32,000 nt of DNA, taken from NCBI GenBank assembly GCA_019056805.1, contig DXJG01000002.1, forward strand, positions 136,907 through 168,906, read 5' to 3'. The notes under the pieces are model-generated. The model made no database searches. It was given only the letters and a program-made list of their open reading frames with translations, and was not told where the DNA came from. The position numbers and the translations under genes were made by a program. Below are positions 1 to 18,653 of this stretch, piece by piece. The stretch comes from Candidatus Baldrarchaeota archaeon (GTDB lineage: Archaea > Asgardarchaeota > Baldrarchaeia > Baldrarchaeales > DXJG01). Numbering within the stretch: position 1 is the first letter of the stretch; each line of letters opens with the position of its first letter.

Positions 1-2661
1 ATTTCCATGTGGTTTTATCGGTAAAACTGCAACATTTGGCGGTAAATGACAGAATGGTAAAACTTCAGCACTTGTCAAAACGTAATAAAGAAACTCTCTC
101 TCAATGGGGTGTCTATCAATTTCATATTCGATCTTTCCTCTCATCTTTGCTCTTCTTGATGTTCTAACCATTGGAATCTTTTCATCAATAACATCAACAA
201 ACCAGCAAGTTTGCGGAACTATCGTTGCTCCCTGGTAAAAATCTCCATAGTAGTGACTTCTAGAACTAATTGCCTCAAGTTTTACAAGTGAGATGAAAGA
301 TCTCTTCTTAACTAGGTTTAAGTAAAGTTCGCTCTCCAAAACTTTTAATTGTTTTAGTGCTTCTGATAGGCTCATAACCTTGTGTCTATCTTCTGGAAGT
401 TTTCCTTCAATAATAATTGTTGGAACTGGATAAGATTTTCCAGTTTCCTTTTTTGCTATAACAGCGCATGCTGGAACATAGAATAGTGGGGTAACTTTGC
501 AGTCAATGAACTTCTCAATTTTATACTCAACTTTAACATCTTGCCTTCTAAATTTGTCGTGTTGATCGGAATACATTATTGATTTTGGCATTACAAACCC
601 TATTGATCCTCCATCCTTTAAATATAAATCTAAACATCTAATTAGGAATAGTGTAGCCATTTCCATGTGAGTCATTAAATGTTCCTCAACAACTAATCCA
701 TATTTTTCTTTTATCAGTTTTTTGACTTTCCTTTGGTAATCTGGGTCTGCTATAAATCTGTAGGCAAGCCAAGGAGGATTCCCTACGATAAAATCAAAAT
801 CTCTGTAGTACGTTGAGACTATGTAAGTTTTGAGTATAGGTATCCAGACTGTATCAATTTCTTTCCTCACGAATTCAAGTAATTTATCATAGACACTTTT
901 AATTAAGATTCTTTCTTCCCTTGTTAGCTTATAACTCTCTAGCCTTCTTTGGAGTTCTATATTATCAAATGGAGCTTTTGCTTCTAGAAATCGTTCGAAA
1001 TCGTTCAGTAAATCTAGAGCTTTATCAAGAAGTTTCGAGGGGATTTGGAATTTCGTTCCACCAGCTTCAATTTCAACGACTTTTACGGGTTTACCCGCTA
1101 CCCATACTGTATCTTCAAGCTCCCTAGCAGTAATAATTGAGTTTGCTAAATACACTGGAATTTCTATCATTTCCTCCCCTTTATGTTCTAATAGTCTTTC
1201 AGAGGCTAATGCAATTAGATAATTTGCTCTAGCTGTAAGAACGGCCAAAGAATCTATATCAAAACCTATAACATTTGAACAGATCGTTTTCAGTAAAGTT
1301 TTTGGGCCAATTTTGTCTTTATACTTTGCCATCTTTTTAATTACTAAAGCTAAAAATGTTCCGGTTCCAGCTCCGGGATCTAAAAATTTGGTATTAATCA
1401 AATCTGTATCTTTAGTTAGTTCATTTATTATGAGTTCTGCAAGCCAGTCTGGAGTTGTGTATATTCCTAGCTTTTGTCTTACTTCTTTTCTTGGAACTAA
1501 TTCTTCATATAAAAGTTTGAAAACGTCTCTAGCCATTGAAGGCTCTTGAATTAAAGACTCTATATCATATTCCAAAAGCTTTTCAGCAATTACTCTTACA
1601 ATTTCCTCTATTTCGTCATCCCATTCATCCAGATACCATGAGAAAAATTCCCCTTCTAAAAAGTTCTTTATTTTGTAAATAGAATAAAGGTATCCGGTTT
1701 CAAGCTCTTCAATTTTCTCTTTAAGTTCATTTTCAGCAATAGCTCTTTTAACTTCTTCAAAGAAAGTTGCTATAGTCGCATTATAAAATCTTGCAGCAAC
1801 TTCAACTGATAATAACTTTATAACTAGAGCGTAGTAAGTTTGAATTGCAAAAAATAACTTTAATCCATCAATCTTTTCCATCTCCATTTTTTCAAATCCA
1901 TAATCTTCGGCGATTTTCCTTAATTCTTCACCAGAAATTGAAAAAGCTTGAGATGTGAGCCTTAACCATTCATCAAACAGTTTTTGGGTCTTTTCACTCG
2001 GATTTTCAAGTTTTTTATACAATTTCTTTACAGCTAAATGTTTCTTTACAATTAGGCTTCTATAACCAAAGTCTGATGCCAAAAGTCTTGCATCTATCTT
2101 CTTCTTATAAGCTGCAATAACCCTACCTATTATTCTCCTTAATGTTTCTGGTTTTAGCTTGTAAAATCCTACCTCTGGTTCCAGTTTGAATTCGTTCAGT
2201 TCAGGGCAATATTCAACAAAAATTACGTTGTAGCCGTCCCAGATAATTCCAGTAATTATTGGGGTAAAACCTTTCTCCTTAATCGCTTCTATATGTCTTC
2301 TAATTCCCTCTTTATTGAGAAGGCCAGGGATATAGATTTCTTTTGTTTTCTTTATTGCTTCTTCTCTTACACTTGCCTTTTCTAATTCACTCGGCTTTTT
2401 GTACTCAAATATTACTAAGCCATATAACGCATCTATTCTCCCCCAATGTTTAGCAGAGACACCAAGCCATTCCTCACTTTCAACTCTATACTCGTATCTT
2501 GGCTCTGGAACCCCTAAAGCATCCCAAACTTCTTTTCTTAAAATTCGCTCTATTCTATTCTTCAAATCCTCTTCATTGCCTTTAATGTTTTTAACTTCTT
2601 CCACTTCTTGTATTATTTTATTGCAAATATCACCCAATTTAGCCTCAAACAAACGACACAC
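1..2661 (-). CDS. Fused restriction endonuclease / N6-adenine DNA methyltransferase (type IIG/Eco57I-like), 3' end outside window
   Basis: Manual translation of the minus strand is open in the segments read from GTG 2661 (or TTG 2652, preceded by GGAAGGTG) to position 1; absent from the ORF track because it has no stop in the window. N-terminal GRIDALYGLVIFEYKKP (PD-(D/E)xK-like), GIYTTPDWLA (motif X), FLDPGAGTGTFL (motif I), FIVGNPPW (motif IV, nt ~769-792): gamma-class order. Confidence 0.9.
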   Translation of the reverse strand, partial: MCRLFEAKLGDICNKIIQEVEEVKNIKGNEEDLKNRIERILRKEVWDALGVPEPRYEYRVESEEWLGVSAKHWGRIDALYGLVIFEYKKPSELEKASVREEAIKKTKEIYIPGLLNKEGIRRHIEAIKEKGFTPIITGIIWDGYNVIFVEYCPELNEFKLEPEVGFYKLKPETLRRIIGRVIAAYKKKIDARLLASDFGYRSLIVKKHLAVKKLYKKLENPSEKTQKLFDEWLRLTSQAFSISGEELRKIAEDYGFEKMEMEKIDGLKLFFAIQTYYALVIKLLSVEVAARFYNATIATFFEEVKRAIAENELKEKIEELETGYLYSIYKIKNFLEGEFFSWYLDEWDDEIEEIVRVIAEKLLEYDIESLIQEPSMARDVFKLLYEELVPRKEVRQKLGIYTTPDWLAELIINELTKDTDLINTKFLDPGAGTGTFLALVIKKMAKYKDKIGPKTLLKTICSNVIGFDIDSLAVLTARANYLIALASERLLEHKGEEMIEIPVYLANSIITARELEDTVWVAGKPVKVVEIEAGGTKFQIPSKLLDKALDLLNDFERFLEAKAPFDNIELQRRLESYKLTREERILIKSVYDKLLEFVRKEIDTVWIPILKTYIVSTYYRDFDFIVGNPPWLAYRFIADPDYQRKVKKLIKEKYGLVVEEHLMTHMEMATLFLIRCLDLYLKDGGSIGFVMPKSIMYSDQHDKFRRQDVKVEYKIEKFIDCKVTPLFYVPACAVIAKKETGKSYPVPTIIIEGKLPEDRHKVMSLSEALKQLKVLESELYLNLVKKRSFISLVKLEAISSRSHYYGDFYQGATIVPQTCWFVDVIDEKIPMVRTSRRAKMRGKIEYEIDRHPIEREFLYYVLTSAEVLPFCHLPPNVAVLPIKPHGN
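2573..2651. repeat. 79-bp direct repeat, copy 1 (5' end of the RM gene)
   Basis: tcattgcc...agcctcaaaca matches 3393-3471 at 78/79 nt (2605 t vs 3425 a); offset 820 bp. Confidence 0.95.
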
Positions 2662-2766
2662 CTTCCAATTTTAAATGTAATATTTAATTTACCAACTAAA
2701 TGTGAATTTTATTGAGTAATAAAAAGCTAATAGATTTTATCATCACAGTAATCAATCCTTATGTAG

Positions 2767-3207
2767 CTATTGTAACGTTAGTTGGGATATTATATATTCG
2801 TATTCTTGTTTTGTTAAGTATCTTCCAGAGACCGTTACCATAGTTTTCGGTTTTATAGGTTTCTCATATTTTTTATGATTTTTTAGTTTAATGACTAGCA
2901 TTTTCGGAAGTCCCCCCTCCGACCAACGTTCTTTAGTATATTTCTTAAATTCTTCGGGTGTAAGGAATAGGTCTACACGGTATTTTTTTAATACATTTGG
3001 TGGTTCAAGGAATTCGATGGATTCTATAACTGCTTCTCCAATTATTTGATTAATTCCATGTGAAGCGTAGAAGAGAATTTTATGATCTGGTTTTAATTGA
3101 TTCATTTTTGTGAATTTAACAAAAATTTTCTTCTTTTTATCAAAAATACGATTTGCTATACTCTCAGGCAAGGGAAATATAGCACCTAATATTTTTTCCT
3201 TTTTCAT
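2767..3207 (-). CDS. DUF365-like / ASCH-EVE (PUA-superfamily) domain protein
   Basis: 146 aa; GAIFPLP...RIF...KIFVKF...KILFYAS...IIGEAVIESIEF...LFLTPEEFKKY and a C-terminal P-V-T-V-x-G-x-Y pattern recalled from archaeal DUF365/PUA-like proteins. Confidence 0.7.
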   Translation of the reverse strand: MKKEKILGAIFPLPESIANRIFDKKKKIFVKFTKMNQLKPDHKILFYASHGINQIIGEAVIESIEFLEPPNVLKKYRVDLFLTPEEFKKYTKERWSEGGLPKMLVIKLKNHKKYEKPIKPKTMVTVSGRYLTKQEYEYIISQLTLQ

Positions 3208-9769: not shown

Positions 9770-9830
9770 GGCCGATGACGACAATCCGGCAAGGAGGAAC
9801 ACATGACTGATCACAGTTACGCGCGAGGCC
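9770..9830 (+). ncRNA. Box C/D guide sRNA (candidate), LSU rRNA H69/H71 guides
   Basis: GGCC/GGCC terminal stem, C box ATGACGA 9775-9781, guide aatccggcaagg, D'-like AGGA 9795-9798, C'-like ATGACTG, guide tcacagttacg, D-like GCGA 9823-9826, then a T-run. Boxes are degenerate; first guide is complementary to CCUUGCCGGA (recalled archaeal H71). Confidence 0.6.
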
Positions 9831-16580: not shown

Positions 16581-18265
16581 TCAGCATCTATTTCTTTTAT
16601 GCTTTAACGCTTCTCTGACGAAGGCAACATATATCGGAGACGGCCTATTAGGTCGACTCTTAAATTCAGGGTGAAACTGGACTCCTACAATCCATGCGTT
16701 ATTTGCAAGTTCTATTGCATTCACAATGTTACCCGTTTCATCATACGCTGAAATAACCAGATTTTTATTCTCTGCTTTTTCTGCATATTCTTTTATAATG
16801 TGATATCTGTGTCTAAATCTCTCCACAACTACTTCTTTTCCATAAGCTTCAAAAAGCTTAGTTCCCCTTTTTATGTAGATTTTATGGCCGCCCAACCGCA
16901 TGGTTCCACCTTTCGCTTCTATCTTACGTTGTTCTGGAAGCATATCAACTACGGGATGTGGTGTATTGGGATCTATCTCCGTGCTATTTGCATCTTTTAA
17001 TCCAAGCATTCTTCTACAAAATGCAATAAATAAAAGCTGAGCACCGAAACAAATTCCTAAAAACGGCTTTCCCTTAAGTATGGCATAGTCGGCTGTTGCA
17101 ATCATGCCCTCCACACCCCTCTTACCGAAACCAGGTGTAAGAAGAATACCGTCAAAATTATCCAACATACTTATTTTTTCCGGATTTTCTTCAAATACTT
17201 CTGTTTCAATCCATTCAAGTAACACTTTTACTCCTAGGTGTGCACCTGCATGTTTTAAAGCCTCATTTATTGAAATATAACTATCAATAATAGCTGTATA
17301 TTTGCCAGGCATTGCTATTTTTACGGTTTCGTTGTACGTTTTGAATTTTTCTACGACTTGTTTCCAGCTTTCAAGCGAAGGAGTACGATTTTGGAGATTT
17401 AAAATTCTAGATAAATATTCTCCAAGCCCCTGTTCCTCAAAAAGAAGCGGTAATTCGTAAATACAATCAGTATCAGGGTTTGAAATTACAGCTTCAACGG
17501 GTACATTACAATATAGACTAATTTTTTCTCTTATTTTTTGATCAAGAGGAATTTCAGCCCTACCAACAATAACATCAGGTTGAAGTCCCATGCCTTGGAG
17601 AACTTTAACACTATGTTGAGTAGGTTTTGTTTTGAGTTCTCTAACAGTCTTAAGGAATGGGAGAAGAGTAACATGTACTAATGCGGTATTTTCTCTAGGT
17701 TCTTCTAATCGAAATTGTCTTATAGCTTCGAGAAAAGGCATGGCTTCTATATCTCCTACAGTCCCCCCTACCTCAACAATCAATATATCTGGATTCTCTC
17801 TCTTAGCAACTTCCCTAATCCTGTTTTTTATTTCATCGGTAATATGTGGTATTATTTGAACAGTTTTACCAAGATATTCTCCAACTCTTTCACGAAGAAT
17901 AACCGATAAGTAAACCTGTCCACTAGTAATATTATTGCATGGATGAATATTTTTATCTAAAAATCTTTCATAAGTCCCAAAATCTTGATCAATTTCGGAT
18001 ATTCTAAATTTAAAACCATCAGCTGGTGTGAATTCCCAAACATCTTCAGTTACAAAAACCTCCCCATGTTCGATTGGATTAAGAGTACCTGGGTCAACAT
18101 TCAAATTCCCCCACGGCTAGAAATACTCTAGCCGCGTTAGGGGTCGATTTTTATAGCATCAACACTAAACCCTCTAAATTGGAAAAGTTTGGCAATCGAA
18201 GCAACAGTAACACCCTTACCAATACCAGACATAACTCCTCCTGTTATAAATATGTATTTTGTCAA
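16581..18265 (-). CDS. pyrG: CTP synthase, two exons (18265-18138 and 18105-16581), 550 aa after splicing
   Basis: Exon 1 from TTG 18265 (GAGGTG RBS): [42 protein letters not shown] plus UA; exon 2 U plus [18 protein letters not shown]..., [10 protein letters not shown], glutaminase FLGICFG and QFHPEF. The ORF track starts at 18104 and misses exon 1. Confidence 0.97.
18106..18137 (-). other. 32-nt bulge-helix-bulge (BHB) mRNA intron in pyrG
   Basis: Minus strand: UCGA-CCCC-UA|A-CGCGGCUAGA-GUAUU-UCUAGCCGUG-GGGG-AA|U-UUGA. 4-bp CCCC/GGGG central helix, two 3-nt bulges, 10-bp intron stem, 4-bp exon helix; splicing yields GAC CCC UAU UUG AAU (DPYLN). Confidence 0.93.
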
Positions 18266-18406: not shown

Positions 18407-18483
18407 TGCGGGATGATATTACGACGGTCTCATGAGCTTTCATTGTTTCTTAGCAAGGATGAGAAATGGGCAGCATGACCGCA
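18407..18483 (+). ncRNA. Box C/D guide sRNA, predicted 2'-O-methylation of LSU C2590-equivalent
   Basis: TGCGG/CCGCA terminal stem; C-like ATGATAT 18413-18419; guide ttacgacggtct 18419-18430; D' ATGA 18432-18435; C' ATGAGAA 18459-18465; D ATGA 18475-18478. Guide pairs over 12 nt (one G-U) with recalled LSU AGACCGUCGUGA. Confidence 0.82.
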
Positions 18484-18594: not shown

Positions 18595-18653
18595 TGGCTC
18601 ATCCAAATGCCTTTTCATCACTTTTCAGTGCCGGAAGTATTAATCATCGACCA
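18595..18653 (-). ncRNA. Box C/D guide sRNA, predicted 2'-O-methylation of LSU A1938-equivalent
   Basis: Minus strand: tggtcg-ATGATTA-atacttccggca-CTGA-aaa-GTGATGA-aaaggcatttgg-ATGA-gcca, classic C-D'-C'-D spacing with 12-nt guides; D guide is complementary to CCAAAUGCCUU. Confidence 0.88.

Follow-up and report, generated by a model that had tools for sequence, protein, structure and literature searches.

Does the spacer between pyrG and purA of an Asgard archaeon (Candidatus Baldrarchaeota archaeon) encode a genuine small guide RNA, and which nucleotides of the ribosome would such an RNA act upon? These questions are raised by a short minus-strand segment of the window, that is, the whole stretch of 32,000 nucleotides that was analysed. 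In all likelihood, the segment 18652-18595 encodes a box C/D double guide of ~58 nt with its own TATA promoter, directed at the equivalents of E. coli A1938 and G1906 in 23S rRNA and representing the counterpart of the known guides Sac-sR125 and IHOsR109. The predicted gene lies in a 0.8-kb spacer, with the CTP synthase gene pyrG (minus strand) on one side and the adenylosuccinate synthetase gene purA (plus strand) on the other, the encoded CTP synthase being 92% identical to a record named ‘Candidatus Odinarchaeota archaeon AUK032’. The following elements were assigned to it:

18652-18595, minus strand: sRNA gene, 58 nt, its C/D box layout read from the sequence
18692-18685, minus strand: BRE-like GAGATAGC, from the sequence
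18684-18678, minus strand: TATA-like TTTTTAA, 26 nt 5′ of the terminal stem
18649..18652, minus strand: 5′ half of the terminal stem, GGUC, from the four-genome alignment
18647-18641, minus strand: C box AUGAUUA (consensus RUGAUGA), with U instead of G at position 6
18640-18629, minus strand: D′ guide AUACUUCCGGCA of 12 nt, pairing best with the 5′ strand of 23S helix 69
18628-18625, minus strand: D′ box CUGA, invariant in the genus and CCGA in Baldrarchaeum (G004)
18621-18615, minus strand: C′ box GUGAUGA, after a 3-nt spacer following D′ (k-loop)
18614-18603, minus strand: D guide AAAGGCAUUUGG (as DNA AAAGGCATTTGG), 12 nt, target 23S CCAAAUGCCUUG
18602-18599, minus strand: D box AUGA (consensus CUGA), with A at position 1 as the partner of C-box U6
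18595-18598, minus strand: 3′ half of the terminal stem, GCCA, weak in the host genome

All four boxes called by an earlier note on this DNA were recovered on the minus strand at the same coordinates, together with its two 12-nt guides, the spacing of which was exact. The upstream TATA that it had mentioned corresponds to the TTTTTAA listed above, and the promoter block containing it (AGATAnCTTTTTAA) was kept in the four aligned members of the genus; a similar promoter element was present at a neighbouring second sRNA. The internal boxes read CUGA, 3 nt and GUGAUGA, with guides of 12 and 12 nt against the 10-12 nt expected of the class. At the terminal k-turn, where a 3-nt bulge (G-A-U) separates the 5′ half of the terminal stem from the C box, the GA/GA and U-U positions were intact, and stem II was closed by U6-A1, not by G6-C1.

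Homologues were found at the syntenic pyrG-purA spacer of the three other genomes of the genus (3/3), and another one in Baldrarchaeum, the sRNA of the same-order genome G004 being identical to that of Candidatus Baldrarchaeum yapensis. Across the four species of the genus, 49 out of 58 columns (84%) were invariant in the sRNA vs. 24 out of 111 (22%) in the adjacent downstream spacer, and the sRNA differed between species in the loop joining D′ to C′, in the nucleotides with which each guide begins behind its box, and in the flanks. This distribution of conserved and variable positions matches the footprint that would be expected for a guide RNA. Moreover, the boxes themselves varied in a concerted manner. 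In the C/D k-turn, a base pair joins the second G of RUGAUGA to the C of CUGA (PMC5389607), and these two positions (C-box position 6 and D-box position 1) were U and A in the genus and G and C in Baldrarchaeum (AGGAUGA, CUGA). Among 30 sRNA-like loci with the same D guide, G-C appeared in 18, U-A in five, A-U in three and non-Watson-Crick combinations in four, one of these last being a bacterial chance match and the related genomes among the 30 loci not being independent. Even so, the occurrence of three pair types at one position amounts to real covariation, and the deviant C and D boxes of the host sRNA compensate each other.

Regarding the terminal stem, all four pairs were present in G001, G002 and G003, with a 3′ flank of GGCC or GACU resulting from one-sided changes; the stem extended to 14 bp in Baldrarchaeum, and only two of the four pairs could form in the host genome (GCCA). 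The AUGAUUN/AUGA variant of the k-turn, with U-A in stem II, was observed to recur in orthologues of distant lineages, its carriers belonging to other Asgard families (L228, L234, L236 and L237) and to Crenarchaeota/Sulfolobales MAGs (L132, L142, L152 and L165). Furthermore, D boxes reading TTGA tended to accompany an A at C-box position 6 in orthologues of the pyrG-purA sRNA. The compensated stem II (U-A for G-C), common to two neighbouring sRNAs, is useful for improving sRNA gene finders, and standard finders requiring CUGA would miss such variant boxes.

To place the locus in its genomic background, a relaxed composite pattern (a C-like box, 11-13 nt, NTGA, 2-9 nt, TGAYGA, 11-13 nt and NTGA) was considered, which found three matches in the host genome (1.92 Mb, 35.5% G+C) and none in each of five first-order Markov-shuffled genomes. 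A strict pattern gave one match and 12 half-sites had rRNA complementarity of at least 9 nt, although regular-expression scans miss variant boxes and such counts are not a census of the sRNAs in the host genome. At the Rfam gathering thresholds no family was matched in the whole window. Under a permissive Rfam scan of 181 nt, at least eight Pyrococcus C/D families aligned over their full length, below threshold, at 18597-18651 of the minus strand. The best of them was sR17 (RF01144), with 30.3 bits and an E-value of 1.4e−5 (gathering threshold of 36 bits), followed by sR47, sR1 and sR28. These end-to-end matches indicate that the generic archaeal C/D architecture is recognized here, though the locus is claimed by no curated family.

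The core proteins of the class are encoded in the host genome, fibrillarin and Nop5 by genes lying side by side on contig C9 (PF01269, 335.6 bits, and PF01798, 259.2 bits, respectively) and L7Ae by two genes of its family (PF01248). In addition, a word composed of the C′ box, NN, AGGCATTT, NNN and TGA was present in many genomes of Desulfurococcales, Sulfolobales, Thermoproteales, Nitrososphaeria, Bathyarchaeia and Asgard archaea. The same exact word appeared in 22 out of 301 sampled Asgard genomes, distributed over 10 out of 70 genera, compared with 0 out of 301 for the reversed-pattern control; the word being strict, genomes without a match are not evidence of absence. The public runs listed with the locus, in whole or in part, were 11 DNA metagenomes, none of them recorded as RNA. 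Overall, the locus is very probably a genuine box C/D small guide RNA of an Asgard archaeon.

The targets of the guides were read on the 23S of relatives, since neither 23S nor 16S was found in the host assembly with the LSU and SSU rRNA models. The SSU model detected no 16S in the three genus relatives either, so that 16S targets could not be screened within the genus. The set of 23S sequences comprised eight Asgard genomes, namely the same-genus G003 (L005), Baldrarchaeum G004 (L004) and six others. Among the 11 tRNAs called by aragorn, a clearly incomplete set, neither guide had a target. Besides, 23S was sought in five other guide-carrying genomes, to see whether the D′ guide covaries with helix 69, and it was present in Nitrosopumilus only.

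On these sequences both guides showed at least 9 bp of complementarity with a Watson-Crick pair at position 5, as in known members of the class. In particular, the host D guide formed 11 Watson-Crick pairs with CCAAAUGCCUUG starting at position 1 beside the D box, and the D guides of G001 and G003 paired with it at 12 out of 12 positions. The match was unique in the 23S of G003 and G004, the next-best site in G003 having 8 bp with wobbles, and only 0.14% of the shuffled D guides reached 11 Watson-Crick pairs anywhere in the rRNA operon. The core of the D guide was invariant in the alignment of the genus, and on the side of the target the motif CCAAAUGCCUU was present in the eight Asgard 23S sequences, including one from the same genus, all of which also contained CCAAATGCCTTG. 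The pairing site, CCAAAUGCCUU(G), is located at the junction of helices 70 and 71, and position 5 of the guide is a U that lies opposite the third A of the target, giving a Watson-Crick U-A pair.

With the numbering anchored on pseudouridines 1911, 1915 and 1917, we take CCAAAUGCCUUG to be E. coli 1934-1945 and its third A to be A1938. By our own mapping, the yeast run m5C2278-A2279-Am2280-Am2281 places this third A at 2281. The E. coli numbering was consistent with the E. coli row of a published alignment (Dennis 2015, PMC4644070). The yeast modifications m5C2278, Am2280 and Am2281 have been listed previously, with snR13 guiding both Am2280 and Am2281 (PMC5199042), and yeast Am2281 corresponds to human Am3764 (U15A/B), Arabidopsis Am2271 (AtU15) and Dictyostelium Am2547 (PMC8817022).

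The best site for the D′ guide was CGCCGGGAGUAA, which belongs to the base of helix 69 on its 5′ strand and, in mature rRNA, lies 32 nt upstream of the D target. There, the host guide formed 10 contiguous pairs (nine Watson-Crick and one G-U) with the 23S of G003 and G004, and the Baldrarchaeum guide (G004) formed 11. The pair at the +5 position was C-G, which by our own numbering would select the equivalent of E. coli G1906. Within 100 nt of the D target, a match this good was reached by 0.28% of the shuffled D′ guides. The same-genus 23S also offered an equal match (10 bp, nine Watson-Crick and one G-U) at about nt 1069, and 9% of the shuffles found a match of this kind somewhere; the assignment to helix 69 rests consequently on proximity and on the orthologues. 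Concerning the latter, the partner guide of Nitrosopumilus paired with the loop of helix 69 (9 bp), and that of the Asgard family f8 with its 3′ strand (7 bp, by eye). The family is accordingly a double guide in which the D arm stays on A1938 and the D′ arm shifts its position around helix 69. For the host, the most likely D′ target is E. coli G1906, on the 5′ side of helix 69.

Several proposals of the earlier note bear on these pairings. Its D guide pairing of 11 bp was reproduced, with 11 Watson-Crick pairs, on the same-genus 23S. Likewise, its identification of the +5 nucleotide as A1938, and hence as yeast Am2281, holds in silico on the 23S of relatives (PMC5199042, PMC8817022), and the idea of an archaeal guide for a eukaryote-conserved modification is supported, also in silico, by a target motif shared by all eight Asgard sequences. 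When both guides were aligned with the 23S of relatives, the D target stood (11-12 bp), whereas the D′ target proposed at G1948 did not: the pairing with UGCCGGA, described as weak by the note itself, exists, with 7 bp, but it is not the best one, given the 10 bp available at helix 69. This helix 71 target was consequently rejected in favour of the longer helix 69 pairing, which is backed by published orthologues.

Three alternative explanations were weighed against this double guide. That there is no RNA gene at all, box-like words and an rRNA-complementary 11-mer having come together by chance in AT-rich intergenic DNA, is barely credible. A host genome with 35.5% G+C and the lack of an Rfam family at gathering score speak for it. 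Against it stand the zero pattern matches in shuffled genomes, a sharp island of conservation across four species, compensatory changes in the boxes, and orthologues spread over Asgard and TACK archaea against a reversed-pattern control of 0/301; the conservation already contradicts it. More room is left for a real C/D sRNA in which the D arm works as set out above and the D′ arm acts elsewhere, which we nevertheless consider unlikely. The candidates in this case would be AGCCGGAGGUAG near nt 1069 (domain II), UGCCGGA of helix 71 (G1948), or no target, the arm then being a helper or chaperone. The domain II site offers the same 10 bp (nine Watson-Crick and one G-U) as helix 69 and even 11 bp to the guide variant of G002; however, it is ~1,070 nt away compared with the 32 nt of helix 69, and the eleventh pair gained by the guide of G004 appears at helix 69 and not in domain II. 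The helix 71 site pairs from guide position 1 with 7 Watson-Crick pairs, but its pairing is limited to these, and it abuts the D target, so that simultaneous binding is ruled out. Moreover, only 0.28% of the shuffled guides do equally well within 100 nt, and the published Sac-sR125 and IHOsR109 were assigned to the 5′ strand of helix 69.

The remaining alternative, according to which the sRNA would mainly be a structural clamp on the 23S segments flanking the intron site of the genus, serving exon alignment or folding with methylation as a secondary role, appears improbable. It draws on an insert of ~580 nt in the same-genus 23S (L005), which separates the helix 69 target from the CCAAAUGCC target and ends 8-9 nt before the latter, the D target, on similar inserts in L002 and L007, and on the chaperone roles proposed for double guides (Dennis 2015, PMC4644070). 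Nonetheless, the same double guide exists in lineages that have no 23S insert at this point (L003 and L004), no tie was seen between the presence of the sRNA and that of the intron, and both +5 positions form the Watson-Crick pairs needed for methylation. The insert itself (L005, sense ~2527-3091) was found after ...CUCUCUUAA and before GGUAGCCAAAUGCC, and any link between the sRNA and this same-genus intron separating its two target sites is speculative.

Under the preferred reading of a methylation double guide, the C and D boxes would form a k-turn and the C′ and D′ boxes a k-loop, following what is known of archaeal C/D sRNPs. Both would be bound by L7Ae, and a dimer of Nop5 would bridge them and position two fibrillarins. 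Each guide would then form a duplex of ~10 bp with nascent 23S, the nucleotide opposite position 5 receiving the 2′-O-methyl group. By way of the D guide, fibrillarin would methylate the third A, equivalent to A1938 in E. coli, A2281 in yeast and A3764 in human, and the D′ guide would direct methylation at the equivalent of E. coli G1906, at the base of helix 69. The double guide might also hold two neighbouring domain IV segments of the subunit interface during ribosome assembly.

Three further elements were observed in the window:

18407-18483, plus strand: second C/D sRNA, convergent with the 18652-18595 sRNA, with a 5-bp stem UGCGG/CCGCA
18106-18137, minus strand: insert in pyrG, 32 nt, bulge-helix-bulge-like
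9770-9830, plus strand: third C/D-like RNA, with a GGCC stem, C box GATGACGA and guide CAATCCGGCAAGG

In the second sRNA the C box reads AUGAUAU, for which the three relatives have AUGAUUA, and AUGA serves as both D′ and D; it has a D′-C′ spacer of 20 nt (22 nt in G002) and its own conserved TATA ~23 nt upstream, with 61 out of 77 columns invariant in the genus. Its D′ guide has 10 nt complementary to 23S AGACCGUCGU in the peptidyl-transferase region, with E. coli 2590 at +5, and its D guide (GCUGCCCAUUU) showed no target in the available 23S, the partial 16S or the called tRNAs. The pyrG insert splits the CTP synthase between ...AIKIDP and (Y)LNVDPGT..., shifting the frame, and folds into a 4-bp CCCC/GGGG helix with flanking 3-nt bulges and a 10-bp hairpin. 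It measures 31-32 nt in the four members of the genus (4/4), the length varying in the hairpin loop, and Baldrarchaeum pyrG lacks it, the protein running continuously through KIDPYLNVDPGT. On the basis of sequence and fold, this insert is probably an endonuclease-spliced mRNA intron. As for the RNA at 9770-9830, its guide is complementary (by eye) to CCUUGCCGGAU, directly 3′ of the D target in the 23S of relatives; if this pairing is true, three guides would cluster on helices 69-71. Outside the window, the only fully canonical C/D sRNA found by the strict pattern lies at ~293.9 kb of host contig C9 on the minus strand (ATGATGA, 12 nt, CTGA, AAAG, TGATGA, 12 nt, CTGA), and both its guides are complementary over at least 9 nt to the partial 16S of Baldrarchaeum (L004, 512 and 356).

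The guide occurs in a number of Asgard families and is widespread among TACK archaea; in every case its partner guide is directed at helix 69, and its orthologues often carry the AUGAUU-/AUGA box variant. The occurrence in Asgard archaea and Crenarchaeota of a guide for Am2281/Am3764 makes it plausible that the modification is older than eukaryotes. This site is among the most conserved ribose methylations of eukaryotic rRNA, and its guide is here described in the closest archaeal relatives of eukaryotes. Whether the guide was inherited from the archaeal ancestor of eukaryotes, such that SNORD15, snR13 and AtU15 would descend from a similar sRNA and not merely converge on it, is more doubtful, and we put such descent forward tentatively, as the less probable case; if true, it would place them among the very few snoRNA families traceable across eukaryogenesis. 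A full-text literature search found no catalogue or description of Asgard C/D sRNAs, and the present work adds a well-supported C/D guide RNA to this group. For other archaea, textbooks or published work already cover the mechanism as well as the target site; the gain is incremental and involves no new mechanism.

Compared with known guides, the Pyrococcus families (sR17, sR47, sR1 and sR28) have an architecture of ~55 nt and a box spacing like those of the host sRNA, but unrelated guides, and their matches below the gathering thresholds are a class resemblance, not family membership. The eukaryotic SNORD15 (U15A/B), snR13 and AtU15 guide 2′-O-methylation of the same universally conserved adenosine at which the host D guide is directed, although these eukaryotic RNAs are longer and their second targets differ. 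Human SNORD15A uses its box D guide for the A3764 site and its D′ guide for the nearby G3771, whereas the D′ guide of the host sRNA falls on helix 69; in snR13 it is the D′ arm that serves the shared site, and A2280 is methylated as well, by means of an unusual D′ box and extra pairing. Within the 181-nt region, the Rfam models of SNORD15 and snR13 gave no match at E≤10, what they share with the host sRNA being only the boxes, the guide and the target nucleotide.

The closest counterparts are Sac-sR125 of Sulfolobus acidocaldarius and IHOsR109 of Ignicoccus hospitalis, both of them C/D sRNAs detected by RNA-seq; the published 23S alignment places each of the two on CAAAUGCC and on helix 69, 5′ strand (Dennis 2015, PMC4644070). 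The Pyrobaculum sRNA P40 is also marked at CAAAUGCC, the site of the D guide, and the same study describes helices 68-71 as hotspots of methylation and roughly half of the archaeal sRNAs as double guides acting within 100 nt (Dennis 2015, PMC4644070). Like the host sRNA, Sac-sR125 and IHOsR109 consist of a C box, a 12-nt guide, a D′ box, a short spacer, a C′ box, a second 12-nt guide and a D box. The +5 nucleotides of Sac-sR125 are, by our own mapping, E. coli G1906 and A1938, as in the host sRNA. Several differences were found as well: the two published RNAs belong to Thermoproteota and not to Asgard archaea, the sequence of the D′ guide follows the helix 69 stem of each lineage, and guide positions 1-2 beside the D box pair in the host sRNA, unlike in Sac-sR125 and IHOsR109. 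The terminal boxes also differ, being AUGAUUA/AUGA, with U-A in stem II, in the host and GAUGAAG/CAGA in Sac-sR125. As in these orthologues, the D guide of the host falls on the third A of CCAAAUGCC and its D′ guide on helix 69, and the shared D-guide core (AAGGCAUUUG), together with both target regions, identifies the host sRNA as the Asgard orthologue of a known double guide.
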